A DNA stretch of 64,000 nucleotides from an uncultured Bacillota bacterium. GTDB taxonomy: Bacteria; Bacillota; Dethiobacteria; DTU022; UBA8154. The notes beneath the pieces were generated by a model. The model did not search any database and was not told the origin of the DNA. It saw only the letters and a program-made list of their open reading frames with translations. Location of the stretch: NCBI GenBank assembly GCA_937973635.1, contig CALJJZ010000035.1, positions 10,812 through 74,811 of the forward strand. The letters are read 5' to 3'. The translations under genes were made by a program, and so were the position numbers. Of the stretch, positions 5,686 through 64,000 are shown piece by piece (the stretch's first letter is position 1; each line of letters begins with the position of its first letter).

Positions 5686-5737
5686 AAAACCCTTTAATCT
5701 CCCGACAACCTCCTTTCACCGCTCCGCCGGCGAAAAT

Positions 5738-6819: not shown

Positions 6820-6872
6820 GGCCTCCTGCCCCCTTGCTGTCGAATTATGGCGAAATACAGCGAAAAATATTG

Positions 6873-6884
6873 CGGAATATTCCG
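6873..6884. promoter_or_regulatory. Perfect 12-bp palindrome CGGAATATTCCG in the promoter region of the WYL gene (candidate operator)
   Basis: Seen directly. It is 54-65 bp upstream of the WYL regulator ATG (6819, minus strand), within an AT-rich 145-bp intergenic region. Confidence 0.35.
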
Positions 6885-6964
6885 ATTTTTTATTTTCTGG
6901 TTGTTTCCTCTTATTTTGTTAAATTTCGCCATCCAGCCAGTAATTCCTTCTTTAAAAAAGGGCG

Positions 6965-7951
6965 TTATCCCTGAAAATTTTTTGTTTGGTTAAGCTCGGT
7001 TAAGCAAAAAAAAAGGCGGTATTTGCCCAGGCCAAAGACGGTGTTTTTGCCCACGTGGAGATGTTCGCCCAGAACTAAAAAGGGCAAAAATTCGTCCAGC
7101 GCGCCTTCATAGACCACGGCCCCCAACAGACCGCCCATGCTCAGGCGCTGTTTCTGGCGGCGGGAGTAGCGCTCCCACTCGTGCCAGCGTGTCGTATCCT
7201 CTGTCAGAGTTACTTCCCGGGAGCGTGCAGCCAAGCCGGGATAATCCACGGCAAGCTGTACCCCCTGGTGAAAATAGGCGAGGGCGGAGATGCGGCGCAG
7301 AGCTTGGCGGAAAAAGACGTGAAAATGCGGCCGATAGACAATTTTGCCGCCGTCTTTTAGCTGCAGGGGCGTATCGAAAACGACGCGCAGGCGGGCTGCC
7401 TTCGCCGGAGAGCGCTGCAGCAGCTGGGCGCCGCTGTACGACAGATCCAAGTTTTTAATCACCCCCGTTGCCGCTGTATAGAGCTCCGCCTCCTCTTCCA
7501 AACCACAGGCAGTTACCTCTTCCAGGGTAAAGGGCCGTCGCCCCTGGCCCAGGCCAGCTGCACCCATTTCACGAAAAACAAGGATAAAGTAAGGCAGGAA
7601 GTTGATGGCGCGGCCAATTAAGAGAAGATGGAAGGGGATGGTTTCTCCCGCGAGGTAATCCTTTCTTGTCTCCAGGGGGGGCTGGAGGACAAAGGGGCGG
7701 GGGATACTTTCATATTTGCGCAGGGCCGTAGCCTCAGGGGGCGGGGCAGTTTCAAAGATATAGGCATAGGGGCATTCTTCCCGCAAACCGCAGCCATGGC
7801 AGTCCTGCTGGTGCACAGCGCAACTGATACGCCGAAAAACAGAGCCAAAACCTCCCCGGAAGGTGGCTCCCTTGTAGGGGGGCAGAACCAGGCCCTCCGG
7901 CCCTGCCTTGATATTGAAACGAAAACGCGCTAGACGAAAATTTGCAAACAT
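6965..7951 (-). CDS. cas6: Cas6-like RAMP endoribonuclease candidate with an inserted four-Cys cluster
   Basis: 328 aa. The N-terminus LARFRFNIKAG...LPPYKGATFRGGFGSVFRR resembles Cas6 beta1-alpha1. The Cys cluster reads C-x7-C-x2-C-x5-C (CAVHQQDCHGCGLREEC). The C-terminal Gly-rich loop GKNTVFGLGKY fits the Cas6 G-loop. It sits immediately upstream of the WYL-cas3 block. Confidence 0.45.
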   Translation of the reverse strand: MFANFRLARFRFNIKAGPEGLVLPPYKGATFRGGFGSVFRRISCAVHQQDCHGCGLREECPYAYIFETAPPPEATALRKYESIPRPFVLQPPLETRKDYLAGETIPFHLLLIGRAINFLPYFILVFREMGAAGLGQGRRPFTLEEVTACGLEEEAELYTAATGVIKNLDLSYSGAQLLQRSPAKAARLRVVFDTPLQLKDGGKIVYRPHFHVFFRQALRRISALAYFHQGVQLAVDYPGLAARSREVTLTEDTTRWHEWERYSRRQKQRLSMGGLLGAVVYEGALDEFLPFLVLGEHLHVGKNTVFGLGKYRLFFCLTELNQTKNFQG

Positions 7952-38715: not shown

Positions 38716-39225
38716 CTAGGATGTTGCCCGCAGCCGGAACCTTTTCCTGTAATCCAGGAAAGAGGCTACCACCAGGAATAGCCCTATGGCCGCAGCCAGG
38801 AAGCTGGCAAAGTTGGCCCTGGCGATGCACTGGTTGATGTAACTGGAAAGATCCGCCGAAACATCGGCAGGAATAAAGTCCGTTATAAACTTCAGCAGGA
38901 TCTGAAATAAGATCACGCTGAACACGGAAATGACCCCCGGCGCCACAAAAACCCCAAGGTGGTGTTCCAGGAAATAAAGGAAGATAAGGCACAGGGCCAT
39001 GCCAAAGATGGCAAAAAAGAGAGCTATCTGGATATTAAGGGGCTGTAAATGGGCTATAAAAATTACCTCTGCGTTCTGCCTTGCCGTCGCTTCAGTGATA
39101 ATTATCTCCAGCGAATCGGTGGCTACCGTCCCAGTCAGCGCGTAAGCCGTAATACTGACAAGGACGCAAACCGCAAACACGAAGCCTATAATGATCCTGA
39201 GCCAGATCTTTACCGTCTGGAGCAT
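38716..39225 (-). CDS. Hypothetical integral membrane protein
   Basis: 169 aa with four hydrophobic helices; no family recognised. Confidence 0.35.
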   Translation of the reverse strand: MLQTVKIWLRIIIGFVFAVCVLVSITAYALTGTVATDSLEIIITEATARQNAEVIFIAHLQPLNIQIALFFAIFGMALCLIFLYFLEHHLGVFVAPGVISVFSVILFQILLKFITDFIPADVSADLSSYINQCIARANFASFLAAAIGLFLVVASFLDYRKRFRLRATS

Positions 39226-39391: not shown

Positions 39392-40390
39392 TCAGGGGCA
39401 GGAAGCAGAGTCGGGCGTAAAAACACAAACCCGGTTGCGGCCGTCTTGCTTGGCCTGGTAGAGAGCCCTGTCCGCACAAGCCAACAGTTTTTTTGCGGAG
39501 ATAGAACCATGGGGGACGACAGTAGTTACACCAAGGCTGATGGTAACCACAGGGCAGGCGCAGGAACAGCCGTGGGCGATCTGCAGCCCTTCGATGAGCT
39601 CCCGCATCTCTTCGGCAAGGAGAGCGGCCCCCTCTAAAGGGGTTTCCGGTAGGACAACAACAAATTCCTCGCCGCCGTAACGGGCAAGGAGGTCGCCAGG
39701 CCTTTTTAAACCCTTCTGCAGGGCCCGGGCTATCTGCTTCAGGCAGTCATCGCCGGCTAGATGCCCGTAATTGTCATTATACGCCTTAAAACTATCGATG
39801 TCGATCATGATGAGGGAAATGGGGGTCTTGTTCCGGCGCGCCCTTTTCCACTCTATCTCCATAAATTCTTCGAAACGCCTGCGGTTGGCGATACCTGTTA
39901 AGCCGTCGAGAGAGCTCTGCGCCTGTAGCTTCGCATTTGCCTCCTCCAGGAGGCGGGTCACGCCCAGGAGCTCTTCTTCGCGGGCCTTGCGCCGGTCCAT
40001 CTCCCTCTTCAAGGTCAAGGCGGAACGGATCCTGGCCAAGAGCACGACCTTGCTCAAGGGTTTGGTGATATAGTCTATTGCCCCGGCGTTAAAAGCTGCT
40101 TCCAGGAACTCTTCTTCCGACTTGGCCGTAATGATGATCAGGGGGATCCCTTTGAGGTGTGCCGTGGACTTGATCTGCCTGCAGGCTTCAATACCGTCCA
40201 TCCCCGGCATGACTACGTCCATGAGGATTAAGTCAACCTCCGACTTTGCGGTAGGGTCATGGAGCTGTAAGCACGCAAAGGCCTCCTCGGCGTTCGCAGC
40301 GCAGAGCACTTCTTGGTAGCCGGCCTTCTCCAATGTATCTTTGATATAAGTGCAAACAAAGGGAGAATCATCTACAACAAGGACTTTCAT
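39392..40390 (-). CDS. Response regulator with GGDEF diguanylate cyclase output (PleD/WspR-like)
   Basis: The REC domain has the phosphoacceptor in LILMDVVMPGMDG. The GGDEF domain has an RxxD I-site (KRPGD) and the catalytic motif GGEEF. Confidence 0.85.
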   Translation of the reverse strand: MKVLVVDDSPFVCTYIKDTLEKAGYQEVLCAANAEEAFACLQLHDPTAKSEVDLILMDVVMPGMDGIEACRQIKSTAHLKGIPLIIITAKSEEEFLEAAFNAGAIDYITKPLSKVVLLARIRSALTLKREMDRRKAREEELLGVTRLLEEANAKLQAQSSLDGLTGIANRRRFEEFMEIEWKRARRNKTPISLIMIDIDSFKAYNDNYGHLAGDDCLKQIARALQKGLKRPGDLLARYGGEEFVVVLPETPLEGAALLAEEMRELIEGLQIAHGCSCACPVVTISLGVTTVVPHGSISAKKLLACADRALYQAKQDGRNRVCVFTPDSASCP

Positions 40391-40497: not shown

Positions 40498-41754
40498 CTA
40501 CAGTGCAAGGATTTTGCCGCGTAGTTGAGCCAGGAGACGGAGGTAGGCAAGGGCGTTGTTGGTCAAAAGGAAGTTCTTTCTTACCTTCTCCCTGCCGCGC
40601 TCGCCCATCTCCCGGGCCAGCGGGGGATTGCGCAGGAGCGTCAGGGTCTTGGCGGCACACTCCTCCACCGTATCCGCCAGGTAGCCGTCTACCCCGTCTG
40701 TGATCTGGAGCTTAATTCCGCCTACCCTGCCCCCCACCACGGGACGGCCTTTCCACAGGGCCTCGGCCACGGTAAGGCCGAAACCTTCTTTAAGGGATTT
40801 TTGCAAGACCACGTCTGAAACAGTCTGAAAAGCGTTTACCTCCAGGCCGGTGATCCCGTTAAAGTTGGTCACCACTTTGACGTCATAGTCCTCGCCGGCT
40901 TTGCGCAGCGTCCTGTAGAGGTAATCCCAGCCTTCCGGGTCATCGTGGGCCATGGAGCCTACCAGGGCCAGCTGCACCTCCGGCAGCTCCTTTTTGACCA
41001 TACGGTACACATCGAGAACACCCAGAGGGTCTTTCCAGGGATCAAAGCGGGAAACCTGAGAGATAAGGGGCCGGCTGAGATCAATGCCAAAACCGGCGAC
41101 GATCTCCCGTGCCTGCTCCGGCGCCAGAGGGGCGTTTTTGAGGCTGAGGGGGTCGATGGAAGGAGTAATAAAAGCCAGAAAAGGCAGGCCGTGATCTTCC
41201 TTTACGTAAGCGGGCAGGGAAAAGATACAGGCATCATAAAGGGAGATCTAGCCATGGAGGAAGCTCCAGTAAGCGGGGTGGGGGGCCGAGGTATCGATAT
41301 GGCAGCGCCAGATCCACTTTTCACCGGCCTTCCTGCCCCGGTAGTAAAGCAGAGCCGCAGGCTGGGGATCATGGATGACATAGTAGTCGTAGCGCCAATC
41401 CTGCATGGCCCGGGCATTAAGCTCATTGTAACGGAGGTAGACCTCTAGATCTCGCTGCTGCAGGCAGCCTTTCTGCCCCTGCAGGCCATTATGGAAGTTC
41501 TTGGTAATATAAAAAAACTGATTGGAGCAGCCGCTGATGATCCACCAGTGGACTTCCAGACCCAGATCGTTGAGCAGGGGGACCAGGGAATGGAGTTTTT
41601 CCGCCACCCCCCCTCCATAGCAGGTAGCGCTGACCATGGCAACCCTTGCGCCCCGCAGGTCTTCAAGCAGCGCCGTGAAAGCGTCGAGGGTCTGGAGGTC
41701 TAAAAAACGGCAATAATCTCTAAAGCTTTTTTTCCCTGTTTGTACCTGTTTCAA
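40498..41754 (-). pseudogene. treT: TreT-like trehalose glycosyltransferring synthase (GT4) interrupted by a single in-frame TAG at 41250..41248
   Basis: The ORFs 41248..41754 and 40498..41010 are in the same frame. Manual translation across the gap is continuous (...AYWSFLHG*ISLYDACIFSLPAYVKEDHGLPFLAFITPSIDPLSLKNAPLAPEQAREIVAGFGIDLSRPLISQVSRFDPWKDPLGVLDVYRMVKK...). That gives a 418-codon TreT-length protein with one amber codon. Confidence 0.6.
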
Positions 41755-41861
41755 GAAACTCCCTCCTTTGCCCCGCAGCTAGATAACGGGCCTGTTTTAT
41801 TGTTTGCGTTTTGGCCATTTATATTTACAGGCCGGCTTTCTGCCATATTTTGTAGGACAGT

Positions 41862-43709
41862 TTGCCCCTTATAGCCGGGACTTTTTCAGGTTATACTAAG
41901 CCTATGCACATGGGAGCAAAAATAATCGACAGAGAAAAAGAAGTAGTGGAATTCAGGGTCTTTGCCTACAAGCAAAAAAAAGTGGAGCTGCTCCTCAAAG
42001 GGGAGGACCAGAGGCAATGGAGCGTACCCATGGAAAAGGAAGGGCCTCACCTTTACCGTGCCGTCATCGCCGGACAGGGGCTTTCGCCCCTTTATAAATT
42101 CCGCCTCGGAGAAGAAGGGGACTTCCCCGACCCGTATGCCGTTTACCTGCCCGAGGGGGTCCACGGTTTCTGCCAGGTTATAGACGACGGCGCCTACTGC
42201 TGGCAGGCGGAGAACTGGAAAGGCCTCGCCCTGGAAAAGTTGATTTTCTATGAGGTGCACACGGGCACTTTTTCAAAGGAGGGGACTTTCCAAGGCATAG
42301 CGGCCAGGCTGGATTACTTGCTAGAATTGGGCGTCAACGCCCTGGAGCTTATGCCCGTAAACCAGACCCCGGGGAGATGGAACTGGGGTTACGACGGGGT
42401 GGCCCTTTTCAGCGTCAACCACAATTACGGTACGCCGGACGACCTGAAATCCCTGGTGGACACATGCCACCAGCGGGGCCTGGCGATCTTTCTGGACGTC
42501 GTCTACAACCATTTTGGTCCGGAGGGCAATTACCTTTACGCTTTCGGGCCCTACTTTACAGAAAAGTATAAGACGCCCTGGGGGCCTGCCTTAAATTTTG
42601 ACGACCGGCACTGTATGTACATGCGGCGCATGATCCTAGACAATGTCCGCTACTGGCTGGAAAGCTACCGTTTTGACGGTCTGCGCCTGGATGCGGTGCA
42701 TACCATCCGGGACGAGAGCCCCACGCATATCCTCGCGGAAATAAGCCGGACAGCCAGGGAGATAGCCCAAAGGAGCGGCCGCCGGATCGCCGTGGTCGCG
42801 GAAACGGATAGAAACGACGTCCAGCTGATCAATCCCCCGCAAAAGGGAGGTTACGGCATCGACGCCCAGTGGATGGACGACCTGCACCACTGCATCCATA
42901 CGGCGCTGACAGGGGAAAAAGACGGCTATTACCTCGATTATGGCCGGCTAGCTGACCTGGAAAAAGTTTATAAAAATTACCTCTTTACCGGCGAATATTC
43001 CCCTTTCTGGGGCAAAGCAAGGGGTACAGATGCCTCCGCCAACCCCGGTCACCAGTTCATCGTAGCCATCCAAAACCATGACCAGGTAGGCAACCGGGCC
43101 GGGGGCGAAAGGCTGACCCACCTGGTAGATTTCCCCCTGCGTAAAGCCGCCGCTGGGCTGCTTTTCTTCTCCCCTTATCTTCCTCTCCTTTTTATGGGAG
43201 AAGAGTACGGCGAAAGGCGACCGTTCCTCTTTTTTACCGATTACGGCGACGAGAAGCTGAAAGCCGCCGTCTCCCGCGGCCGCAGGGAAGAATTCCAGGC
43301 TTTTGCCTGGGATAATTTCCCCGACCCCGGGGACGAAGAGACCTTCTACCGCTCCAGGCTGACACCGCAGGAACAATGGGATGAGGGAAATAAATGCCAT
43401 TTTGCTTTTTATCAGGATCTAATCCGCCTAAGGAAAACACATCCAGCCCTACTGCTGCCGGATAAAGAAAAAACTGCCGTCAAGGTGCAGGGGGAAAAGG
43501 CCATAGTGGAGATCACGCGCTGGAACGGCAAAACAAAGCTTGTTGCCCTGTTTAACCTGGGAAAGGAGACACTGGAAATGGGCGCCTATCGGGGCAAGCA
43601 GATCTTTAACTCCGAATGGCGCAGGTACGGCGGCATAGTTGAAGGCGAGACAAGAGAGCTCTACCAGGGGAATATGCTTGTCCTGGAAAACACGGACGAC
43701 CAAAGCTGA
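41862..43709 (+). CDS. treZ: Malto-oligosyltrehalose trehalohydrolase-like GH13 enzyme
   Basis: N-terminal E-set region (EFRVFAY) and GH13 catalytic regions (GFDGLRLDAVH, the EY segment of GEEYGE, NHDQ). The start may be the internal MHMGAKI. Confidence 0.7.
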   Translation: MPLIAGTFSGYTKPMHMGAKIIDREKEVVEFRVFAYKQKKVELLLKGEDQRQWSVPMEKEGPHLYRAVIAGQGLSPLYKFRLGEEGDFPDPYAVYLPEGVHGFCQVIDDGAYCWQAENWKGLALEKLIFYEVHTGTFSKEGTFQGIAARLDYLLELGVNALELMPVNQTPGRWNWGYDGVALFSVNHNYGTPDDLKSLVDTCHQRGLAIFLDVVYNHFGPEGNYLYAFGPYFTEKYKTPWGPALNFDDRHCMYMRRMILDNVRYWLESYRFDGLRLDAVHTIRDESPTHILAEISRTAREIAQRSGRRIAVVAETDRNDVQLINPPQKGGYGIDAQWMDDLHHCIHTALTGEKDGYYLDYGRLADLEKVYKNYLFTGEYSPFWGKARGTDASANPGHQFIVAIQNHDQVGNRAGGERLTHLVDFPLRKAAAGLLFFSPYLPLLFMGEEYGERRPFLFFTDYGDEKLKAAVSRGRREEFQAFAWDNFPDPGDEETFYRSRLTPQEQWDEGNKCHFAFYQDLIRLRKTHPALLLPDKEKTAVKVQGEKAIVEITRWNGKTKLVALFNLGKETLEMGAYRGKQIFNSEWRRYGGIVEGETRELYQGNMLVLENTDDQS

Positions 43710-43733: not shown

Positions 43734-47142
<3,409 letters not shown>

Positions 47143-47153
<11 letters not shown>

Positions 47154-48354
47154 CGTTGAGCTCTCCGCCTTTCTGCTGGCCCTCTTCCGCCACAAACATA
47201 TTGATCAGGGTCACATCGTCGCTGAAGCTGTCCGCACCGGCAAAGTCCCGCAGCATCTGCACTAAAGACGGGACTAGCTGCGATGCCTTTGTCCTGTCCA
47301 TCCCCTTTAACAAAGCGCGCAGGCGCCCTTCGCCGAACTGTTCCCCGTCTTTATTTTTCTGCTCTGTTAAGCCGTCCGTATATAAAAAGAGCCCCTCCTC
47401 TGCTGACAGCTGCACCGCCTGCTCCCTAAAGTCTTTCCCTTCTCCCAGAGACATGATTGGGCTGCCATAACAAACCAGCTCCCGCAGCCCCCCTGCCCCG
47501 CCGTACAGAAAAACGGGCTGGGCAAACCCGGCAGCGGAGTACGTCAGGGTCCTTTCCTTGCTATGGTAAAAGGCCAGGAAGATGGTAATAAATATCTCGG
47601 GCGGAAAGTCCTCCTCCCGGAAAGCTTCTTCCAGTGCCAACAGGCAGCGGCGGGGGCTAAAGGGGCCTACTCCCTCTCCGAAGGAGAGCTTGCGGAAATA
47701 GCCGGCAAGGGTCTCCCGGATAAAGACCGTGAGCATGGCGGCATCGAGCTGGTGGCCGGAGACATCGGCCAGGTAAAGGCAGACTACGTCTCCTCCCAGG
47801 CTGAAAATATTAAAATAATCCCCGCCCAGCAGCTCTGCCGGCTGGTAAAAAGTATTAAATCTTAGGTTGGCGGGGGAGGGGTACTCCCGGGGTAGGAGGG
47901 CCCGTTGAATGCGCTGGGCCGTTTTAATATTGGCAAGAAGGTTTTCATTCAGCTCCTTTAGCTGCTGGTAGTAACGGCGCAGGCGCAAGAGGGACCTTAC
48001 CCGCGCCTTCAGCTCCATAGGATCCACCGGCTTGCTTAAAAAATCGTCGGCGCCCATCTCTAGACACTTTAATTTGGCCGCCCGGTCGTGCAGGGCTGTA
48101 ACCATAATCACGGGGATGAACATAGTCTCCTCCCTGCTTTTAAGCCGGCGGCAGACTTCAAAACCGTCAAGGCCGGGCATGACAATATCAAGAAGGACCA
48201 GATCCGGTTTTACCTCCTCCACTCTCACAAGGGCTTCCTCACCTGAGGCAGCCTGCGAAATCTGCGTATAGCCAGCCTCTTCTAAGTAGCGCTGCAGCAA
48301 CCTGCGGTTAAGTTGTTTATCGTCCACAATGAGTATTTTGGGCGGAGCTCCCAC
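47143..48354 (-). CDS. Response regulator with PP2C/SpoIIE phosphatase output (RsbY/RsbU-like)
   Basis: REC domain with phosphoacceptor in LVLLDIVMPGLDG, then a PP2C region (GGDYFNIF...LADVSGHQLDAAML). Confidence 0.8.
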
Positions 48355-48407
48355 CGTTTTCCCCCCGCATAAAAATAAAAGAGTACTGCCGGAATCCGAT
48401 ACCGCGG

Positions 48408-48719
48408 TCAGATAATTTTAATCACCTTATCCAGCTGGATGATCCTGAACATCCTGCTGACATTCTCGTTAGTCACGTTGCTCACACGCAGCTCGCCGTG
48501 CCGTTCCTTGAGCAGTTTATGGAACAGCAAAAGTTTGCCCAGCCCGGAGCTGTCGATGGCGTTTACATGGGTAAAATCTATGGTAATGGTGTTATATCCT
48601 TCATCATAAAGCTCCAGCAGCTTCTCTTTTAGCCCCTGAGAGTTGGAGATATCTATGCTCCCCTCCGGAATTACTACAACCGCCTTGTCGTCCGTCTTTA
48701 CTGTTTTCATTTCAAGCAA
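48408..48719 (-). CDS. STAS-domain anti-sigma-antagonist-like protein (phosphorylatable Ser present: IDSSGLG)
   Basis: 103 aa with a SpoIIAA-like fold and a DSSG motif. Confidence 0.75.
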   Translation of the reverse strand: MLEMKTVKTDDKAVVVIPEGSIDISNSQGLKEKLLELYDEGYNTITIDFTHVNAIDSSGLGKLLLFHKLLKERHGELRVSNVTNENVSRMFRIIQLDKVIKII

Positions 48720-48732
48720 AGCCCCCTTTAGA

Positions 48733-50604
48733 TTAAAATAAGGTCAGATCTCCCTCTGCCGAGCCCTCGTCCAGCTCATGGGCCTGCAGGTACTCCTTTG
48801 CCTGCAGGCGCTCCAGGTAGCTTGTAAAAAGTTTATACAGTTCCAGCAGTTCTGCGTTTTTCTCCTGCCATTCCTGCAGCCCCCAGCGCTGCAGCTCCAC
48901 CTCCTGCTGCTCCCTAGTCACCTGGACAATCTCCCCAAAGAGCACTTTGAGTCTCCCCACGGCCTGATGCAGGTGCACTGTATGCTGCAAAGCGTCGTTG
49001 ACTTCCTGCAGTTTCTGGAACAACGCCGTAATCTCGGCAGAGAGGGCGAGGACAGCCTGGCCGGCGATCTTGTTTGCCGCGCCAAAACGCTCCAGGTTGA
49101 CGTTTACCTCTGTGAGGGCATGGTCGATATGTCCCTGGTTGCGGAAGACAAGCTGAGCAAAGCGGTCCAGGTCCCTCTGCAGGCGGCCTTTAAGTTTAAA
49201 AAACGAGTTCCTATTCACCGTGACCGTCTCGTCCACCGCCTCAATTACCCCATCGATCTTGCTGCCGATGGCTGCATCGTGCCGGTTAATCCGCGCCAAC
49301 TCAATGCGGGACAGCAGCTTGATCTTTTTCAACAGGGAAACCCGCTCCTGGACAGCTTCAAGGCTTTGCTGCACCTGCAAGATATTCTCGTCGTAAAGGC
49401 TGCGGTCCTCCACCAGGCTGTTTACCCTTTTCCTGATCTCCAGCAGGACCTCCTTGAACTCCTCCATAAAGGCATAAACCGAGCTAAAGGTATAATCTAC
49501 GGCGGTCAGGGTCCTGCTGCCATGCCTGATAGAAGGCTCACCGGCCAGATAGGCAGCCAGGAGCTGTGCTTCCTCTCTGACCCCGTCAAGGGCCTGCAGG
49601 AGGTTCTTGGCCGTCAGGCCGATCTGGTTCAAGGAAGCCACCAGCTGCTCAGACATCCCCTCCACAAGTTTCTGTGTCATCCCCGCCACGCCGTTGACAA
49701 AAACGATATGGTCAAGGCGTCTTTCCTTTGTCTCTGGGGCAACGGGTAAAAAAAGGTACGTCTTGTATTTTAATTCCAAAGCCTGCAGGCACCTGATGCT
49801 GTTCTCCATGTTCTGCCTGATAATATCCTGGCGCTGGATCAACCCCATCAGCTCCTGGAAAGGCGAGAGCACCAACTGCACATTGGCGATGATATTTTTT
49901 AAGATTTTGCTCATCTCCCCGATGGAGGCAATAAGGTTGGCAAAGATCTCTTCTAACCTGTTAATATAACCCTTTACCGCTGTCTCCTGGTTGCCGATAA
50001 TGCCCTGTACATCTTCCTGGAATTCGCTGTACCAGCGGTTCAAAGCTATAAGGAAAGCGTCGATGCGCTGGAATTCCTTTTCCAGGAAAATAGATGTCTG
50101 CAGGATATGGTCCGAGACGACAGCAAAGGCCCTCCCTTCCTCGCCGAGCCGGGAAGAGAAGATAATGGCGTTTAAAGAGATGTCGTTAACGTCGGAAAGG
50201 GTCCTTTTAATCACACCTACCAGGTCAATAAAGGTGCGGAAAGAGTTCTCCCGGTTCTCTCCGCCCAAAAACAAGCCCAGCAAACGGTTCACGTCTTCCT
50301 GCCCTACTAAAAGGGTGCTGATCTCCCTAAAATTATCCCGCACCTTTTGCAGCGCTTGAGCAAAAAGGAGAAACTCGCCAGCTTTAGCGGCCTGGGCCGT
50401 CTGCTCTGATTGGATAAAGTAGTTAATCAGGATATTGGTCTCCTGCTGTGTAAGCTCCAAGTTCCGCTCGATCACCGGCAGGCTTTCGTGTACAATGCCG
50501 TAATAATGCTCTGTCTCCCCGATCAGTTCCTGCAACTTCATGACAGTGTCTTCAATTACTTTCAGCAGGTGCTGTTCTACCCTGCCCACGGCTTGCTCCG
50601 CCAT
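48733..50604 (-). CDS. Soluble, divergent MCP-signalling-domain protein (MCP highly conserved hairpin-tip-like motif near the N-terminus, about 450-aa C-terminal region of unknown function)
   Basis: Residues 139-166 (LSLNAIIFSSRLGEEGRAFAVVSDHI) match the MCP tip [26 protein letters not shown] at about 15 of 26 positions, the same order as the bona fide MCP in this window. There are no TM segments and the remainder is coiled-coil-rich. Confidence 0.55.
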   Translation of the reverse strand: MAEQAVGRVEQHLLKVIEDTVMKLQELIGETEHYYGIVHESLPVIERNLELTQQETNILINYFIQSEQTAQAAKAGEFLLFAQALQKVRDNFREISTLLVGQEDVNRLLGLFLGGENRENSFRTFIDLVGVIKRTLSDVNDISLNAIIFSSRLGEEGRAFAVVSDHILQTSIFLEKEFQRIDAFLIALNRWYSEFQEDVQGIIGNQETAVKGYINRLEEIFANLIASIGEMSKILKNIIANVQLVLSPFQELMGLIQRQDIIRQNMENSIRCLQALELKYKTYLFLPVAPETKERRLDHIVFVNGVAGMTQKLVEGMSEQLVASLNQIGLTAKNLLQALDGVREEAQLLAAYLAGEPSIRHGSRTLTAVDYTFSSVYAFMEEFKEVLLEIRKRVNSLVEDRSLYDENILQVQQSLEAVQERVSLLKKIKLLSRIELARINRHDAAIGSKIDGVIEAVDETVTVNRNSFFKLKGRLQRDLDRFAQLVFRNQGHIDHALTEVNVNLERFGAANKIAGQAVLALSAEITALFQKLQEVNDALQHTVHLHQAVGRLKVLFGEIVQVTREQQEVELQRWGLQEWQEKNAELLELYKLFTSYLERLQAKEYLQAHELDEGSAEGDLTLF

Positions 50605-50640
50605 AACACCCCTCCTTCTTTTCCCAGCGACAAGGAAAAG

Positions 50641-51729
50641 CTAGCCGCGCACATAACTTACGATGGCCCCGCCGATATCATCCAGGGGCAAGATCTTATC
50701 CACAGCCCCCGCCGCGATGGCCTGCTTAGGCATGCCAAAAACAACAGAGCTCTGCTCGTCCTGGGCGATGGTCAGGGCGCCTGCGTCATGCATGGCTTTT
50801 AATCCCCGGGCGCCGTCGTCCCCCATACCCGTAAGGATAATGCCCAGGCTATTGCCGGAAGCATTTTGGGCTACAGAGAAAAAGGTCTTATCCACAGAGG
50901 GGCGGTGCCGGTTTACAGGCGGGCCGTTATCCAGGCGCACGATAAAACCGCTTGCTCCCTTGGACAGGAGCATATGTTTGCCTCCTGGCGCGACCAGAAC
51001 GCTGCCGTTGACGAGAGGGTCGCCGTCTTGAGCCTCCTTGACCCGCAGGCGGCAGAAATTGTTCAGGCTGGCCGCGTAGGAGGCGGTAAAACCGGCAGGC
51101 ATATGCAGCACCACAAGGATGCCCGGCAGGTTGGCCGGCAGCTTAGAGAGTATATTTTTCACCGCCACGGTGCCGCCGGTGGAAGCGCCGATGGCGATGA
51201 CCTTATCTGTGCTCTGCACCAGCCCCCTTCCCGGCTCGCGGGCCGCCAGGTCAGGGATAAGCTCTGCCGGTGCCATCAAGCGGTCGATGCGTTCCTGCCT
51301 GACCTGGCGGCGCAGGACCTCCATGTTTGCCGCAGCAGCATTTCTAATCTTGCCGATTATCTCTGGCGCCAGCTCTTCCAGGGCGCTCCCCAGACCCAGA
51401 GTAGGTTTAGAAATGTAATCCACGGCACCGAGTTCCAAGGCACGGAGTGTAGCTTCGCTCCCCTCCCGGGCCAGGGAGCTGATAACCACCACGGGCAGGG
51501 GATAGGAGGCCATCAACTTTTCCAGAAAAGTAAGGCCGTCCATCCGGGGCATCTCCAGGTCGAGGGTAATCACGTCAGGGCGCTCCTCTTTGATCTTTTT
51601 GATGGCGTACAGGGGATCGTTTGCCGTGCCCAGCACCTCCATACCCCGTTCCCTGGAGATAATGCGGGCTAGCAGTTCCCGTACCAGCGCTGAGTCGTCC
51701 ACAATGAGTACTTTAATCGGCTTAGGCAT
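50641..51729 (-). CDS. cheB: Chemotaxis response regulator protein-glutamate methylesterase
   Basis: REC domain (LIVDDS...DVITLDLEMPRMDG) and the methylesterase catalytic Ser region GASTGG. Confidence 0.9.
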   Translation of the reverse strand: MPKPIKVLIVDDSALVRELLARIISRERGMEVLGTANDPLYAIKKIKEERPDVITLDLEMPRMDGLTFLEKLMASYPLPVVVISSLAREGSEATLRALELGAVDYISKPTLGLGSALEELAPEIIGKIRNAAAANMEVLRRQVRQERIDRLMAPAELIPDLAAREPGRGLVQSTDKVIAIGASTGGTVAVKNILSKLPANLPGILVVLHMPAGFTASYAASLNNFCRLRVKEAQDGDPLVNGSVLVAPGGKHMLLSKGASGFIVRLDNGPPVNRHRPSVDKTFFSVAQNASGNSLGIILTGMGDDGARGLKAMHDAGALTIAQDEQSSVVFGMPKQAIAAGAVDKILPLDDIGGAIVSYVRG

Positions 51730-52334
51730 TACCTGTGGCCCCTCCCATTGTTAAAAATCGTCAGCTCGCTTTCTTTCTGCTGCTGCTGGCGCATCCAGTA
51801 AAAGAAACGCTTTTCCCGGGAAATGGCATCTTCCAGCGTCTGGTTATACTGGATGCGTTTCAGGTAAACTGTAAACTCTTCGGGGAAAAAAAAGATCTTG
51901 CGCCCGTATTTGCCGCCTAAGTTCTCCGCAAGCACCGGGATCTCTTCCATCTGCAGGTAGGTAAGGGCAAAATCAATATTGGACTGAGAGACATTGAGCA
52001 GGGTCGTATCCATGACCTTCCCTCCGCCAAAGACTTTGGCTTCTAGGGTGTCGCGGCGGGCGCCGAGCTTCATCATGCTGTTAATCATCTTTTCCATGGC
52101 ATTGATGCCATAACGGGCGTCCTGGCTGAAAAGGATCTCTTCGGCACGCAGGCTCCCCGGCAGCATAAAATGGTTCATGCCCACAATGCCCGTAGTCCTG
52201 TCCCGCAGACAGACAGAGACACAGGAACCGAGGAGCGTGGTCAGAATGATATTTTTCTCCCGCGTAGCGTAATAGTCCCCCGCGAACAGCTCGTACGTGT
52301 ATTTGTTAAAAGTCCGGTTGAAATACTTTTTCAA
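51729..52334 (-). CDS. cheD: Chemoreceptor glutamine deamidase
   Basis: CheD family, 201 aa (LGSCVSVCL...GMNHFMLPG). Confidence 0.85.
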   Translation of the reverse strand: MKKYFNRTFNKYTYELFAGDYYATREKNIILTTLLGSCVSVCLRDRTTGIVGMNHFMLPGSLRAEEILFSQDARYGINAMEKMINSMMKLGARRDTLEAKVFGGGKVMDTTLLNVSQSNIDFALTYLQMEEIPVLAENLGGKYGRKIFFFPEEFTVYLKRIQYNQTLEDAISREKRFFYWMRQQQQKESELTIFNNGRGHR

Positions 52335-52358
52335 CGCTTCCTTTGCACCACCTTGCCC

Positions 52359-53225
52359 TCAGCCGAGCTTTTGATAGATGGTATGTTTAAGCAGCCGCCA
52401 CCTCCCGGCATTGCCGGAAACAGTATTAATGGATTCGGAATGGCCCAGGAAGAGGAGCCCGCCCTCCATAAGGTGCCGGTGGTAACGCTTTAACACCCTT
52501 TGCTGCGTCTCTTTGTCAAAATAGATAAAGACATTGCGGCAAAAAATAAAATTAAGGGCCTCCCCCACGGGATATTCGCCGGCACTGGTAAGGTTAATGC
52601 GACGGAAAGTGATCAGCTCCCGCAGCATGTCTTTGACCTTGAAAAAACCCGCATTTGGTCCCGTGCCCAACTTAAAATAGGTTTTCAAGTTCTCATAGGG
52701 AATACCTTCCACTTCGTCCTTGCTGTAGATGCCCTCGCGGGCCTTTTGCAGCGTTTCTGTATTAATATCGGAAGCCAGGATCTGGATCTTCCAGTTTTTG
52801 TGCCCTTTGAAATAGCGGTGCAGCACCATGGCGATGGTATAAGGCTCTTCGCCCGTAGAGCAGCCGGCGGACCAGCAGCGCAGGCGGCGGGGCACAAGGC
52901 CCGCCGCCGCCAGCTCTTCCAGCCGGGGCAAGTACTCTTCCACCAGGTAGGCATAGTGGTGGTTCTCCCGGAAAAACTTGGTCACGTTGGTGGTAATAAG
53001 ATTAAACATGGTATCAAGCTCGCCAGGATTTTCCCGGACATATCCAAGGTACGCGCTCACGTCTTTGAGCTGTAGCTCCCGCAGCCTGCGGGAAAGGCGG
53101 GAAATCGTCAACGCCCTTTTGCTTTCCGTTAGGTTCACCCCGATGGAGTTGTAGATCATCTCGCGGATGGCGAGGAATTCTTTATCCGTTAAGGTGTACT
53201 GTTTGCCCGGCAGCGTCGCCATCAT
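52359..53225 (-). CDS. cheR: Chemotaxis protein methyltransferase
   Basis: CheR N-terminal helical domain and SAM-MTase motif WSAGCSTGEEPY. Confidence 0.9.
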   Translation of the reverse strand: MMATLPGKQYTLTDKEFLAIREMIYNSIGVNLTESKRALTISRLSRRLRELQLKDVSAYLGYVRENPGELDTMFNLITTNVTKFFRENHHYAYLVEEYLPRLEELAAAGLVPRRLRCWSAGCSTGEEPYTIAMVLHRYFKGHKNWKIQILASDINTETLQKAREGIYSKDEVEGIPYENLKTYFKLGTGPNAGFFKVKDMLRELITFRRINLTSAGEYPVGEALNFIFCRNVFIYFDKETQQRVLKRYHRHLMEGGLLFLGHSESINTVSGNAGRWRLLKHTIYQKLG

Positions 53226-55339
53226 GACCCTGCCACCTTCGCCGTCTCGCTGCCGCTGTAATCAGCCTTGCGCACCAGGCGGAAGAGGGAGGAGACGTCC
53301 AGAATGATGGCCACTTTCCCGTCGCCCATGATCGTGACTCCGGCCACGCCGTCGACCTGCTCCATGTTTTCCTTAATGCTTTTAATTACTACCTGTTCCT
53401 GGCCGATAATCTCGTCTACAAGCAGCGCCATCTTTTTCTGGCCATCCTTGATGATCACTAGGATCCCCTCCGTGGGACGAGTATGCTCTGCTTCCAGGTG
53501 CAGCAGCTGGTAAAGGGCGGAGTAGGGGATATACTCGTTGCGCAACTGCATAATCAACCCTTTGCCCTCTGCCTGCCGGATGTCTCCCTGGCGGGCTTTA
53601 ATAAATTCCATAATAGAGGTGAGAGGGATGATAAAACGTTCCGTGCCCACCCGTACCATCATGCCGTCGATAATAGCCAAGGTCAGGGGCAGCTTGATGC
53701 TGAATTTTGTCCCCTTGCCCCGTTCAGAAAAGAGCTCCACGCTGCCGCGCAGGTTCTTAATATTGTTGGCCACCACATCCAGCCCTACCCCGCGACCGGA
53801 GATGTCAGAAACCTCTTTGGCCGTGGAAAAACCGGGCATAAAGAGCAGGCGCTGCAGCTCCGCCTGGCTGGGCAGACGGTCCTTTTCCACCAGCCCCCTT
53901 TCCCTGGCCTTCGCCAGGACGGCTTCTTCGTTGATCCCCCTACCGTCGTCGCTGATCTCAATGACAATATTCCCTTCCTGGTGAAAAGCATTGAGATGGA
54001 TCGTGCCCTGAGGTTTCTTGCCGGCAGCTAGGCGCTCCTCCGCCGTCTCCAGGCCGTGATCCACGGCATTGCGGATGAGATGCTTCAGGGGGTCCGTGAT
54101 CTGCTCAATGACCTTTTTATCTAGCTCCGTCTCCTTGCCGCTCATCACCAGCTCGATTTCTTTGCCTTTTTCCCGTGCCAGATCCCTGACCATGCGCTGG
54201 AAGCGCATAAAGGTGCCGCCAATGGGGATCATGCTGGTGGTCATGACCTCCTCTTGGAGGAAACGGATAATTTTGTCCACTTCCTGGAAAGCATTCAACA
54301 CCTCCGCCACCGCTGCCCGTTCTCCCAGCATTTTGGAAACAAGCTCTTTCACGCGGGACTGGGCAATGAGCAGCTCGGCGATATAATTCAGGATCTCTTC
54401 CAACTTACCTGTATCTACGCGAATGGTGTTGGCCTGCTCCTGCTCGCGGAAGCGCTGCTGCGTCTGCATGACCTTGCTCACCTGCCCGCTGGCAAGCTTG
54501 CCCTCAAGCACCAAAAGCTCCCCCACTCGCTTCTGCTTGGCCAGGACCTCTTCTACCTCTTCAGGTGAAATTAGGCCCCGCTCCACGAGCATCTCCCCGG
54601 TCCTTTTCTCTCCGTGAAACCACTGGTCCAGCTCATTGGTGATCTCGTCGATCTTGATCTCGTTGTCGTCGGCAACAAAAATAAAGATATTTTCCAGCTC
54701 TTCTTTACTGCTGCCTGTCTCCAGAAAGATAGTCCAGGAAAGATAGAGCTGCTGCGGATCAAGTTCCTGCAGAGGGGGCAACTTGGCCATATTCACGTAG
54801 TTCTCCAAAAAGACGCCCGTCTCTTCCAGCTCCAGCAAAAGCATCAGGGGATCTGTGCCCGTGGCAAAAAGGTCCGGTTTAAACTTCAGCTCTAGCTTAT
54901 AGTAGCGCTTTCCTGGAGAAGCCTTAGGGGGAGCTTCCTTTTCTGCCGGTGTTTCTCCCCCGGCAGCATATAAATCGGCTTTCCGGATCAGCTCTGCTAC
55001 CTCTTTCTGGTAAGCCGTACCCTCGGGGTCGCCGCTTTCCAAGAGCTGGCGCAAGACATCCAGCCCGGCAAACATAAGAGAGAATACCTCCCTGGGCATA
55101 CCTTCTCCGGACTGGCGGATCTGATCTAAGATGTTTTCCAGGTGGTGAGCCGCCTGGCTAATCTGGGTAAAGCCCATGAGGCCGGCCCCTCCTTTAATTG
55201 TATGCATGGCCCGGAAAACAAGGTCGATCAGCCCCATATCCCCGGGGTTGTCTTCTAGCTCCAGGAGCCCTTCCTCCAGGGACTGGAGGTTTTCCTCCGT
55301 CTCTTCGATAAAAATTTTAAGCATATCTTCACCGGCCAA
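53222..55339 (-). CDS. cheA: Chemotaxis histidine kinase CheA (P1 Hpt, dimerisation, HATPase_c, CheW-like P5)
   Basis: P1 His in AMHTIKGGAG, G-boxes in the HATPase_c domain, and a C-terminal CheW-like domain. Confidence 0.9.
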   Translation of the reverse strand: MAGEDMLKIFIEETEENLQSLEEGLLELEDNPGDMGLIDLVFRAMHTIKGGAGLMGFTQISQAAHHLENILDQIRQSGEGMPREVFSLMFAGLDVLRQLLESGDPEGTAYQKEVAELIRKADLYAAGGETPAEKEAPPKASPGKRYYKLELKFKPDLFATGTDPLMLLLELEETGVFLENYVNMAKLPPLQELDPQQLYLSWTIFLETGSSKEELENIFIFVADDNEIKIDEITNELDQWFHGEKRTGEMLVERGLISPEEVEEVLAKQKRVGELLVLEGKLASGQVSKVMQTQQRFREQEQANTIRVDTGKLEEILNYIAELLIAQSRVKELVSKMLGERAAVAEVLNAFQEVDKIIRFLQEEVMTTSMIPIGGTFMRFQRMVRDLAREKGKEIELVMSGKETELDKKVIEQITDPLKHLIRNAVDHGLETAEERLAAGKKPQGTIHLNAFHQEGNIVIEISDDGRGINEEAVLAKARERGLVEKDRLPSQAELQRLLFMPGFSTAKEVSDISGRGVGLDVVANNIKNLRGSVELFSERGKGTKFSIKLPLTLAIIDGMMVRVGTERFIIPLTSIMEFIKARQGDIRQAEGKGLIMQLRNEYIPYSALYQLLHLEAEHTRPTEGILVIIKDGQKKMALLVDEIIGQEQVVIKSIKENMEQVDGVAGVTIMGDGKVAIILDVSSLFRLVRKADYSGSETAKVAGS

Positions 55340-55353
55340 AACAGCCTCACCAC

Positions 55354-55734
55354 CTATTTAACGAATTTTTTCACTACAGCAATGAGCTGCTCCGGTTTAA
55401 ATGGCTTAACCAGCCAACCGGCAGCTCCGGCATTTTTCCCTTCCATCTTTTTTTGTTCCTGTGATTCTGTAGTAAGTACAAGGATGGGAATAAATTTTAA
55501 AGCGGTATTTTTTTTAACCTCTTTAATAAAAGTAATCCCGTCCATACGCGGCATATTAATATCCGTAATGATCATGGCCGGCTTTTTGCCCTTATTGCCC
55601 AGCTCCTGGAGACGCTCCAGCCCGTCCTGACCGTCCACCGCCGCAACTACCTCATAGCCCCCCTTGGACAGGGTATACTCCAGAGAAGCCCTGACCGTCT
55701 TTGAGTCATCCAGAACAAAAATAAACTTGTTCAT
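55354..55734 (-). CDS. cheY: CheY-like single-domain response regulator
   Basis: 126 aa. It has D (in LDDS), phosphoacceptor in MIITDINMPRMDG, T (LTTES) and K (VKPF). Confidence 0.85.
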   Translation of the reverse strand: MNKFIFVLDDSKTVRASLEYTLSKGGYEVVAAVDGQDGLERLQELGNKGKKPAMIITDINMPRMDGITFIKEVKKNTALKFIPILVLTTESQEQKKMEGKNAGAAGWLVKPFKPEQLIAVVKKFVK

Positions 55735-56024
55735 TGTCCCTTGAATACTCCCTTCTCCACAATATCAACGGCCCCTGAAAGTTCCAGTAACTGTTCCAGC
55801 ATCTTTCCCCTGTTCATCAGGCTAAAAGAGAGGCCTTCCCGCTGGCAGGCTTTAAACGTAGCCAGGAGTAGCTGTATACCGGCTGCATCGACATCCTGCA
55901 GGACAGCAGCATCCAGCACAAACTCCTTTTTCCCCTCTTTCATCCTTTTTCCCAGGTGCGCCAGGATCTCCTCCCGCACCTCCCGGACATTGTGGATATT
56001 CAAAAATTCAGGGAGTTTCAACAT
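55731..56024 (-). CDS. STAS-domain protein with Ala in place of the phosphorylatable Ser (DVDAAG instead of DSSG)
   Basis: 97 aa with a SpoIIAA-like fold. Its start overlaps cheY (ATGA). Confidence 0.65.
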   Translation of the reverse strand: MLKLPEFLNIHNVREVREEILAHLGKRMKEGKKEFVLDAAVLQDVDAAGIQLLLATFKACQREGLSFSLMNRGKMLEQLLELSGAVDIVEKGVFKGQ

Positions 56025-57222
56025 CGGTCATCATCCCCTTGTCATTTTCCCAAAACGGTTCTGCCGCGTCCATCCGCACTATTCCCCCCAGGGCATTTTC
56101 CCGCAGCTCATTATGGCGGGCCATACCCCGGGCATGGTCGCAGTACATAATACCCGCCTCCCCGTTTTCGCAGCAGCGGTTGCCAGCCAAAAGCGGGGCC
56201 GCATAATCCCGGACAATAATGCCAGACCAGTTATTTTTTAAGCATTCGTTCCTTTTTGCCATGCCAGTAGCATGATCGAAAAAGGTAATGCCTCCTTCTT
56301 CATTTCCCTGGCAGATATTGTGGAGCAGCACGGGGGCAGCCTGCTCCAGGACGGCAATGCCAGACCACTTATTGCGGAGGCAGCGGCAATAAAAAGCGCC
56401 GCCGCCGCTTAAGCCCATAAAAGCTATGCCCGTTTCGCCGTTGGAGCTGCACTCGTTTTCCTGCAGGAAGGGGGCGGCTTGCTCCAGCACCGTAATGCCG
56501 TCGGAGCTGTTGTTAAGGCACCTGTTCCCCCGGGCCAAGCCCCCGCTCTGATGGAAATAGACAATGCCAGATTCGCCGTTTTCATAACAGTGGTTGGCTT
56601 CAAGGAGCGGGTGGGCCTTCTCCAGCACGGCGATACCCGCCCGGCCATTACTGGTGCAGGTGTTCTCCAGCACCACCGCGCAGGAACCGCCCAGGAGGAC
56701 GATGCCCGCATGGCCGTTGTCTCGGCAGGTATTCTGCTCAAGGGAGGCCCTGGACTGCCCCGTTACAGCGATGCCGGACCTGTCATTGCCATAACTGAGA
56801 GAGGCGGCAATGCTGCCCTGCGCTCCACTACCTAGCCAAAGGCCGTCTCCGCCTGAAGCCGCGCCTTCCGCATAAACACCACCGCTGAAAGCACAGCCCT
56901 CGATCACCACCGTGCCCTCCTTGACCTGTAAAACATTTGCCCCTGCCTTACCCCCATATTGAAAGGCAATACCGCTAAACTGCCAGCTTCCCCTGCCCTC
57001 CAGCAGCACAACGGCGGGGCCGCCCTCGCCAATAATCTTCGTCTGCTCTCGCCCTTTCCCTTTAAGGGCCAGAGGCTTGGTGAGGACAAGGGGTTCCGCC
57101 AGGCGGTATTCACCTGCGGCAAGGAGCAGAATATCCCCCTCCCCGGCAACAGCAAGGGCCCCGCGCAGGTTTTCCGCTCCCGGGGCAACTTGTAAAATAC
57201 GGCCTTCTTTCCCTTTGTCCAT
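56008..57222 (-). CDS. Cytoplasmic right-handed parallel beta-helix (PbH1) repeat protein
   Basis: 404 aa with no signal peptide. About eleven exact-period 23-aa repeats of consensus N-x-C-x-x-N-G-x-x-G-I... run from residue 141 to 393. Confidence 0.6.
   Translation of the reverse strand: MDKGKEGRILQVAPGAENLRGALAVAGEGDILLLAAGEYRLAEPLVLTKPLALKGKGREQTKIIGEGGPAVVLLEGRGSWQFSGIAFQYGGKAGANVLQVKEGTVVIEGCAFSGGVYAEGAASGGDGLWLGSGAQGSIAASLSYGNDRSGIAVTGQSRASLEQNTCRDNGHAGIVLLGGSCAVVLENTCTSNGRAGIAVLEKAHPLLEANHCYENGESGIVYFHQSGGLARGNRCLNNSSDGITVLEQAAPFLQENECSSNGETGIAFMGLSGGGAFYCRCLRNKWSGIAVLEQAAPVLLHNICQGNEEGGITFFDHATGMAKRNECLKNNWSGIIVRDYAAPLLAGNRCCENGEAGIMYCDHARGMARHNELRENALGGIVRMDAAEPFWENDKGMMTDVETP
56044..56802 (-). 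repeat. Coding tandem repeat, 69-bp period (the PbH1 repeats of the beta-helix protein)
   Basis: Derived from the 23-aa protein periodicity seen in the translation. Confidence 0.55.
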
Positions 57223-57246: not shown

Positions 57247-57606
57247 CTAGAGCTTCTCCTGCCAGCCGGGGCGCTGGAAAAACCTTTTTAGCTCCTCAAC
57301 CTGGCGGGTCAGTGCATCTAAAAGCTCCTTTGCTTCCTCCAAACGCCCTTCTTTTCCAGCAGCCTCCAGTTCAAGGGCAAGTTTGTACGCTGTCTGCGCG
57401 CCGATATTGCCTAGCTCACCTTTAAGGCCATGGGCAGGGGCAACAATCCCCTGGGCATCCTGCCGGCTGAGCGCTTCCTGGACAACATTAAGGTCATGGC
57501 AGCAGTCTTCAAAAAAGAGGGCTACAATCTCCGCCAGAAGATCTTTGCTGCCACCCATCTGCTTGAGCATGTTTTCCAAATCGGGGTGCATCTTCTCGTG
57601 GTGCAT
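57247..57606 (-). CDS. Stand-alone Hpt (histidine phosphotransfer) domain protein
   Basis: 119 aa. Hpt signature around HGLKGELGNIGA, as in the ArcB/Ypd1/HptB family. Confidence 0.7.
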   Translation of the reverse strand: MHHEKMHPDLENMLKQMGGSKDLLAEIVALFFEDCCHDLNVVQEALSRQDAQGIVAPAHGLKGELGNIGAQTAYKLALELEAAGKEGRLEEAKELLDALTRQVEELKRFFQRPGWQEKL

Positions 57607-57689
57607 CTTCAGTTCTCCTTTACCCTTAAACCTTTTAGCTATTTGTTTTTTTCCACAAATTTCTCCTTTTTTCCTTTTTGCCCCGCAAA

Positions 57690-58157
57690 TTATTTGTTCC
57701 CTGCCTCACCTGAGCTCCCTTGCTGCAGTTTTGTAGCCTGCATACAGCCTTCCATCTCCATATTGACGGGCCTGTCCACCTGCCTGCTCTGTGCTAGAAG
57801 GCCAGGGCCGCCTAGCCCCATGAAGTTGAACTCTTGGCACTTGAGCTTGAGAGGATTTTCTTCAATGCAGATCACGTGCTGCAGGCTGAGGCGGTCAAAG
57901 AGCTGCCTGACAAAGGGGTGGCCCACATTGACCAGTTTCAGTTCGCCTCCTTGCTCTTTCAGCCGCTTCTGAGTAACAAGCAAGCAGCTCAACCCGGCGC
58001 TGTCGATGCGCTGCAGAACGTCGCAGTCCAAAGCTAGAACGCTGCAGCCTTCTTCTAAGAGCCGGCCCAATACTTGCTTCAGCTCCCCTGCGTTGGTCAT
58101 ATCCACAAAAGAGGGGAGCCTAACCAGGGCGCAGCTCTTCTCCTTCTCCACTCTCAT
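57690..58157 (-). CDS. STAS-domain protein with a C-terminal extension (Ser retained: IDSAGLS)
   Basis: 155 aa: a STAS core of about 110 aa plus a tail of about 45 aa. Confidence 0.65.
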   Translation of the reverse strand: MRVEKEKSCALVRLPSFVDMTNAGELKQVLGRLLEEGCSVLALDCDVLQRIDSAGLSCLLVTQKRLKEQGGELKLVNVGHPFVRQLFDRLSLQHVICIEENPLKLKCQEFNFMGLGGPGLLAQSRQVDRPVNMEMEGCMQATKLQQGSSGEAGNK

Positions 58158-62398: not shown

Positions 62399-63502
62399 TC
62401 AACACCGCTTAAAAGGTACAGACAATTTAATCGTCGTCCCTTTGCCCGGCATGGCACTGATCTCCATCTTGCCGCCTAAAAGGGAGACCCTTTCCCTCAT
62501 CCCCTGCAGGCCCAGGCGATCCGGAGCCGCAGCAGCCGCAGCCGGGTCAAAGCCGGCACCGTCATCGGCAACGACGATGGAAAGGTCGCCCGGGCTCCAG
62601 GCCAGCTCCACCGCAGCAGTCCTGGCTCCCGCATGTTTGGCGATATTGGTCAGAGCCTCCTGGATACAGCGGTAAAGGGCCGTCTCAATTTCAGGGGGTA
62701 GCTTAACCTCCTCGCCTTTAACCCGCAGATCCGCATCGATACCGGTGAGGCGGCCCAGTTCCTGCAGCATATTGCGCACAACCGCATGGAGCCCAAGGTC
62801 ATCCAGGGCAGGAGGCCGCATTGTCGCTGCTTTATGGCGGATGATGGCCAGGGAATTGTTCACCATCTCGATGCTGGAGGCAAGCCTCTGTTCCAGCTCC
62901 GGCCTTCCGGCAGAGAGCTCTTTTTTTAAGAGCTGTAGCTCTAGCTTGACGGTGGTGAGAGCCATACCTACTTCGTCGTGCAGCTCCCTGGCCAGGCGGA
63001 TACGTTCCTCTTCATAGGCATGGAGTATTTTTTGCGAAAGGGCCTGCATCTCCGCAAGGTTTTCTTGAAGCCGCAGCTCCGCCGCTCTGCGCTTGGCTTC
63101 CAACTCCCGCAGGTACAGCAGGCGGCGGACACGGTGACGCAGCTCCTCCCTGTTAATAGGCTTGGTCAGAAAATCCGCAGCACCAGCTTTAAACGCTCGT
63201 TCCGCCGCGTTGCCGTCGTCCTGCCCCGTAAAAACAAGGATGGGAACCTCACTACCCGCCGGCAGGGATTTAATCCGGGCACATGTCTCTATCCCGTCAA
63301 GGGCGGGCATCATAATATCCAGCAGGACCACATGGGGATAGTGCGTCACAAACATCTCCAGAGCCGTATGCCCGTCTGCCGCCTCCAGAAAGTCTATCCC
63401 GTCAGCTTTAAAGACACTGCGGATCAACCTCCTGGTGGCCCGGTGGTCGTCGGCAATCAAAATCAGCGGCCTGGCTGTTTGGCTCTTCTTCTTAGTGGCC
63501 AT
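62399..63502 (-). CDS. Cytoplasmic hybrid protein: N-terminal receiver plus HisKA_3/HATPase_c histidine kinase (NarX/DegS-type core)
   Basis: REC domain (LILIADD...VVLLDIMMPALDG), H-box LHDEVGMALTTVKLELQ, and C-terminal ATPase G-boxes (VADDGAGFD, GLQGMRERV). Confidence 0.8.
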   Translation of the reverse strand: MATKKKSQTARPLILIADDHRATRRLIRSVFKADGIDFLEAADGHTALEMFVTHYPHVVLLDIMMPALDGIETCARIKSLPAGSEVPILVFTGQDDGNAAERAFKAGAADFLTKPINREELRHRVRRLLYLRELEAKRRAAELRLQENLAEMQALSQKILHAYEEERIRLARELHDEVGMALTTVKLELQLLKKELSAGRPELEQRLASSIEMVNNSLAIIRHKAATMRPPALDDLGLHAVVRNMLQELGRLTGIDADLRVKGEEVKLPPEIETALYRCIQEALTNIAKHAGARTAAVELAWSPGDLSIVVADDGAGFDPAAAAAAPDRLGLQGMRERVSLLGGKMEISAMPGKGTTIKLSVPFKRC

Positions 63503-64000
63503 GACAAGGATCCTTCCCCTTACTGCCGTTTATCTTCTCCAGGATTTTAACGGCTTCGTAAAAATTTTTGCCGTAACAATCTCCCCCCACGTACGGTAGC
63601 AGCGCAGCATCCACATTGAAGATCCTGCCGCCCACAATGACAACACCTTTAAACTGCCGCACCGCCCTGACCTTTTCGATGGTCTCTCGGACAAATCTGA
63701 CATTAAAGGAAAGGGAGCAAGAGAGGCCTAAGGCCGTATAATCGCCCCTGCCCAAAGCCTCGGCAATAAAATGGGGAGGAATGTTTGAACCTAGATAGGT
63801 TACATCCCAGCCCTCCAGTTCCCAGATGTCAGAGAGCATCCTGGCCCCCAGCTCGTGCAGTTCGCTCCCCGGGCAGGCGACAAGCACTTTACCCCTCTCT
63901 TTCTCCCGGGATTCGATGCTTTGCAGCAACGTCGGGTAATGGCTAGAAATAATATTCTGAGTAATCGCCGTAGCCAGGTGCTCCTGGGCCACGCTGATCT
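63492..64000 (-). CDS. Cobalamin (B12)-binding domain protein; the 5' end may lie beyond the window
   Basis: Rossmann-like B12-binding core GKVLVACPGSELHELG (an xHxxG-type motif) preceded by a helical B12-binding_2-like segment. The frame is still open at 64000. Confidence 0.55.
   Translation of the reverse strand, partial: ISVAQEHLATAITQNIISSHYPTLLQSIESREKERGKVLVACPGSELHELGARMLSDIWELEGWDVTYLGSNIPPHFIAEALGRGDYTALGLSCSLSFNVRFVRETIEKVRAVRQFKGVVIVGGRIFNVDAALLPYVGGDCYGKNFYEAVKILEKINGSKGKDPCHGH

Follow-up and report, generated by a model that had tools for sequence, protein, structure and literature searches.

A lone in-frame amber codon in the trehalose synthase gene TreT of an uncultured Bacillota bacterium, seen in one of four near-identical assemblies

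The gene for a GT4-family trehalose glycosyltransferring synthase (TreT; 40498..41754, minus strand) in a 64,000-nucleotide stretch of an uncultured Bacillota genome, hereafter the window, is interrupted by one in-frame amber codon. This TAG, codon 169 of the frame (41248..41250, minus strand), differs by a single base from the tyrosine codon TAT that occupies the same place in three further assemblies of what is essentially one genome: the coding strand has G in place of T, and plus-strand position 41248 is C in the window and A in the other assemblies. The substitution is unique to one assembly, tyrosine is the residue expected at the position, and the gene carries no other lesion. We consider that the amber is probably (at about 0.6) a real, very recent and private nonsense mutation that knocks out TreT; its principal rival is an error in the deposited consensus.

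The frame comprises 418 codons, counting the internal amber, and closes with a TAG of its own. Within a single reading frame lie 168 sense codons, the amber, 79 further sense codons and a 170-codon ORF that opens with GTG (41010..40498, minus strand; terminator TAG at 40500..40498). Translation is predicted to start at TTG (41754..41752, minus strand), with which the starts of the homologues align in an alignment with 32 of them, and a Shine–Dalgarno-like element, AAGGAGGG (41761..41768, minus strand), read directly from the sequence, lies 6 nt 5′ of this start. The sequence-only reading had described a TreT-like gene broken by one amber without a frameshift and terminated by TAG, and its coordinates and its counts of 168, 79 and 170 codons proved exact.

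Profile searches, in which the stop codon was translated as X, confirmed the identity of the gene along its whole length. NCBIfam NF041139 (TreT_Thcocales; E = 2e-137, residues 2–410) outscored every other family by a wide margin, with 458.3 bits that miss the equivalog cut-off of 775; this model is Thermococcales-specific, and by sequence similarity we assign the protein as a bacterial TreT orthologue lying outside that narrow equivalog. Its expected reaction is the formation of trehalose from NDP-glucose and glucose. Pfam TreT_GT1 (PF21269) matched residues 40–185 with 164.8 bits against a cut-off of 27 (E = 1e-48), covering all 144 model positions and spanning the amber codon, and Glycos_transf_1 (PF00534) matched residues 218–389 with 73 bits against a cut-off of 26.4 (E = 3e-20). 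Among structures, TreT of Pyrococcus horikoshii (PDB 2x6q) aligned over query residues 2–412 and chain residues 7–415 (E = 7e-127) with 48% identity over 408 positions, and Thermoproteus TreT (PDB 6zj4) was recovered at E = 2.6e-110. The motif EGFGLT (E323, G324, F325, G326, L327 and T328), which is invariant across the alignment of 32 homologues, is present, and its glutamate corresponds to the residue changed to alanine in the chains of PDB entry 2xa2. The 79 codons between the amber and the GTG ORF, which had been said to encode TreT-like sequence, indeed align without gaps to every homologue. This end-to-end match places colinearity across the stop far beyond chance.

The residue expected at codon 169 was read from the same comparison, a check that the sequence-only reading had itself proposed. 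All 32 close proteins (full-length, 59–77% identity) carry Tyr or Phe in this column, mostly Tyr, and the residue of P. horikoshii TreT aligned to codon 169 is Phe. In a scan of GTDB species-representative genomes, where the best match was 73% identical and the organism fell among uncultured Bacillota close to MAGs of Dethiobacter and Syntrophomonadaceae, the residues aligned in 80 genomes were Tyr (40), Phe (22), Ser (9), Trp (5), Gln (3) and Leu (1), encoded by TAC (26), TAT (14), TTC (15), TTT (7), TCG (7), TGG (5) and a few others. Judging from these alignments, the family consensus at codon 169 is Tyr. A stop codon occupied the column in none of the 32 proteins and in none of the 80 species-level genomic homologues.

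An intact gene in closer relatives, also suggested earlier as a check, was found in near-identical assemblies retrieved through the exact products of neighbouring genes. Three independently assembled contigs cover the site: an 8,355-nt contig from Logan ERR9287890 (loci L001 and L003), a 20,997-nt contig from ENA ERZ6863697 (L002 and L085) and a 5,919-nt contig from Logan ERR9287625 (L004). They are 99.95–99.99% identical to the window, and all read TAT (Tyr) at codon 169. In both contigs that span the whole gene, an intact 418-residue TreT is called. An exact-sequence look-up returned the intact protein from Logan and ENA; it returned the 168-residue fragment only from an NCBI/ENA contig of 171,512 nt, presumably the source of the window. 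Within TreT the ENA copy departs from the window at a single base, 41248, whereas the ERR9287890 copy departs at 41248 and at 41242. The latter is a synonymous polymorphic site in Ser171 (minus strand), 6 nt 3′ of the amber, with TCC in the window and in the ENA and ERR9287625 contigs and TCT in the ERR9287890 contig. A single multi-base event or local misassembly uniting the two sites was considered and rejected, since the ENA and ERR9287625 contigs match the window at 41242 and not at 41248. The ERR9287625 contig itself ends at window position 41225, 23 nt past the amber and 17 nt past 41242; this end might reflect a variant bubble in the assembly graph of that sample, or simply low coverage. 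A scan of JGI metagenomes with a 59-nt site carrying N at both variable bases returned 0 matches.

How the window as a whole compares with its sisters bears on whether the base is real. Across about 44 kb covered by seven loci from five sister contigs, 12 substitution sites and no indels were found. Besides the amber, these are positions 3586, 3598, 25952, 39855, 41242, 44969, 48259, 50161, 53339, 53795 and 55172. Several alleles are common to different assemblies, a pattern typical of real microdiversity: at 44969, for example, the window and the ERR9287890 contig share one allele against the ENA and ERR9287625 contigs. At 53339 the window carries a second private allele, which is synonymous, against a single allele common to two other assemblies. 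Shared and private alleles in the absence of indels indicate that the window represents a distinct haplotype whose consensus looks clean, and on these grounds a real private single-nucleotide polymorphism is favoured.

The alternative that fares best against this evidence is that the TAG arose by an error of base calling, polishing or consensus, and that the organism carries TAT (Tyr) at codon 169 and an unbroken TreT. We regard this as a serious possibility, though an appreciably less probable one than a real mutation. TAT stands in each of the three sister assemblies, and TreT is otherwise flawless. Stops arise by random error more readily than selection tolerates them, and purifying selection keeps real nonsense polymorphisms rare. 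A stop in one assembly out of four, in a conserved gene that otherwise matches its intact copies, is also what a consensus error would produce. The 171.5-kb contig bearing the amber is, in addition, much longer than the sister short-read contigs of 6–21 kb and may have been produced by a different technology or assembler, prone to errors of its own kind. The local sequence context also bears a loose resemblance to one known to provoke Illumina errors: T would have been read as G, with GGC three bases upstream (TGGCTA[T>G]). In the usual pattern of such sequence-specific, GGC-associated errors, however, the preceding bases are repeated (PMC3141275), and the call in question is preceded by T and A rather than by G. 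An error confined to a single read direction would, moreover, rarely be expected to reach the consensus. Finally, the absence of indels and the 12 substitutions in about 44 kb, most of which behave as real polymorphisms, point to an accurate consensus, and the strain variation observed (about 2–5 per 10 kb) lies above the typical frequency of consensus errors. The base is therefore more plausibly genuine, and of the three options offered by the sequence-only reading (recent nonsense mutation, sequencing or assembly error, and suppression or readthrough) the first two still stand and the third, as a designed feature, does not.

If the mutation is real, it would be very young, as TreT shows no decay beyond the amber. 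Among 206 columns at least 90% conserved in the other sequences, the window protein departs from the consensus at 12, within the range of 0–16 seen for intact homologues, and it keeps all invariant residues. An old or decaying pseudogene was accordingly rejected: the gene has one stop and no frameshift, lies one base from the intact ENA allele and shows only these 12 departures. Relaxed constraint on TreT in the lineage is likewise unsupported, the departures falling within the range of intact homologues.

The mechanism we propose is a single-base substitution of TAT (Tyr169) to TAG, confined to the strain or population from which this assembly derives. Translation would end within the N-terminal Rossmann-like domain, with residue 168 as the last, giving a truncated product (41248..41754, minus strand) in which the N-terminal GT-B domain is incomplete; the Glycos_transf_1 region (residues 218–389) lies 3′ of the stop. 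Such a product would lack the C-terminal domain, which is expected to bind the nucleotide sugar and to carry the catalytic glutamate, and with this whole domain lost it should be inactive. The 249 codons 3′ of the amber (40498..41247, minus strand) remain TreT-like by homologue alignment and retain EGFGLT, with E323, and the other invariant residues. The first start downstream is the GTG at 41010, which would yield only the last 170 residues. Apart from trace near-cognate readthrough, no active enzyme would be expected, and the rest of the trehalose locus would remain intact.

A real amber that is usefully read through, whether by near-cognate tRNAs (Tyr, Gln, Lys or Trp) or by a suppressor tRNA with its gene in another part of the genome, could in principle still give full-length TreT, and the 249 intact downstream codons are compatible with this, yet they are expected for any very recent mutation. 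We consider such readthrough highly improbable. No relative examined, and not even a sister strain, has the stop; with TAT in three near-identical assemblies and a stop in none of the 80 homologues, readthrough as a designed feature is rejected. TAG is also a frequent genuine terminator, closing about 20 of the 59 ORFs in the window (TAA, 21; TGA, 18), among them TreT itself, so that an efficient amber suppressor would be costly. No tRNA gene (ARAGORN) and no Rfam element was detected in the 64-kb window. A narrower version, in which a real TAG allele is suppressed only conditionally by an amber-suppressor or pyrrolysine tRNA encoded elsewhere in the genome, is slightly less probable again; were it true, TreT would be made only under certain conditions, amounting to strain-specific translational control of trehalose synthesis.

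Pyrrolysine systems occur in some anaerobic Bacillota, but that this TAG encodes pyrrolysine is exceedingly improbable, as had been anticipated: nothing beyond the codon itself speaks for it, sister strains have Tyr at codon 169 and no homologue has TAG there, neither pylT, pylS and pylBCD nor methylamine methyltransferase genes were found among the scanned window ORFs (Pfam and NCBIfam, with the Pfam annotation of the sister contigs), TAG closes about one third of the ORFs, and TreT is not a known pyrrolysine protein. An ORF with a B12-binding domain does lie at the edge of the window (63492..63992, minus strand), but it adjoins response-regulator and histidine-kinase genes. Because TAG is a frequent terminator and no tRNA, Rfam hit, pyl gene or methylamine methyltransferase gene was found in the window, programmed recoding and pyrrolysine are effectively excluded. 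Other genes split by a single stop were also sought in the window; the remaining same-frame neighbours appear to be ordinary adjacent genes or antisense shadow frames.

Turning to the genomic context, TreT is flanked by a divergent gene encoding the malto-oligosyltrehalose trehalohydrolase TreZ (41862..43709, plus strand; TIGR02402, 664.6 bits against a cut-off of 538.8). TreZ adjoins TreT in all nine of the closest Bacillota/Dethiobacter relatives, the two genes diverging in some members of the clade and converging in others. In the window, TreZ has no TreY beside it. On the other side, 107 nt 3′ of TreT and on the same strand, lies a gene for a response-regulator/GGDEF diguanylate cyclase (39392..40390, minus strand). 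No terminator-like site was detected between the two, so TreT and the GGDEF gene may be co-transcribed, and a polar effect of the amber on the latter is conceivable from this arrangement. A 169-residue ORF farther along (38716..39225, minus strand) has no NCBIfam match, and no Pfam match in the sister contigs; it looks hydrophobic and membrane-like.

Several other features of the window were recorded. A long signalling and chemotaxis cluster (43734..57222, minus strand) encodes a 1153-residue PAS hybrid histidine kinase, a response regulator with a SpoIIE phosphatase, STAS proteins and a 623-residue MCP-like protein, together with CheB, CheD, CheR, CheA and a beta-helix/NosD-like protein. It is followed by a 180-residue ORF without a Pfam match (57430..57972, plus strand). 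At the edge of the window, beside a run of response-regulator and histidine-kinase genes, lies an ORF with a B12-binding domain (63492..63992, minus strand), whose upstream part and further neighbours lie outside the window; it is a candidate sensor or corrinoid protein. At the opposite end is a type I CRISPR–Cas gene set (546..7951, minus strand), consisting of Cas7/DevR (546..1532), a 610-residue ORF in the Cas8 position without a Pfam match (1535..3367), Cas3 (3274..5685), a WYL/WCX regulator (5821..6819) and Cas6 (6965..7951), all on the minus strand. A tandem-repeat scan of the window found no CRISPR array.

Taken as a nonsense mutation, the amber would mean that, within an uncultured Bacillota lineage, one population may just have lost TreT-dependent trehalose synthesis, which its closest relatives keep; the neighbouring TreZ and diguanylate cyclase genes would stay intact. 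In practical terms, position 41248 is a base to verify in the deposited metagenome-assembled genome, and annotation pipelines will report TreT as a split gene or a pseudogene. The amber gives no evidence for altered genetic decoding.

With the pyrrolysine ambers of the methylamine methyltransferase genes mtmB, mtbB and mttB the present case shares nothing more than a TAG that interrupts an otherwise uninterrupted frame. In those genes the position of the codon is conserved across orthologues and the hosts carry pylTSBCD, whereas the TreT TAG is absent from relatives and sister strains, no pyl genes were found in the window and TAG is a common terminator there. The case parallels strain-level nonsense polymorphisms and very young pseudogenes in bacterial populations and metagenome-assembled genomes, which likewise show a lone point lesion with the intact allele in near-identical genomes; no feature distinguishes the present case from these, and it carries no secondary frameshifts or deletions. 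The enzyme itself is already known, and a nonsense allele or an assembly error in its gene is in either case ordinary. Like the archaeal TreT proteins of P. horikoshii (2x6q and 2xa2) and Thermoproteus (6zj4), the window protein is colinear over its full length, has the two-domain GT-B/GT4 architecture and keeps EGFGLT; unlike them, it is a bacterial (Bacillota) orthologue, and its frame has a premature TAG at the position of a Phe in P. horikoshii and of a Tyr in the bacterial relatives.
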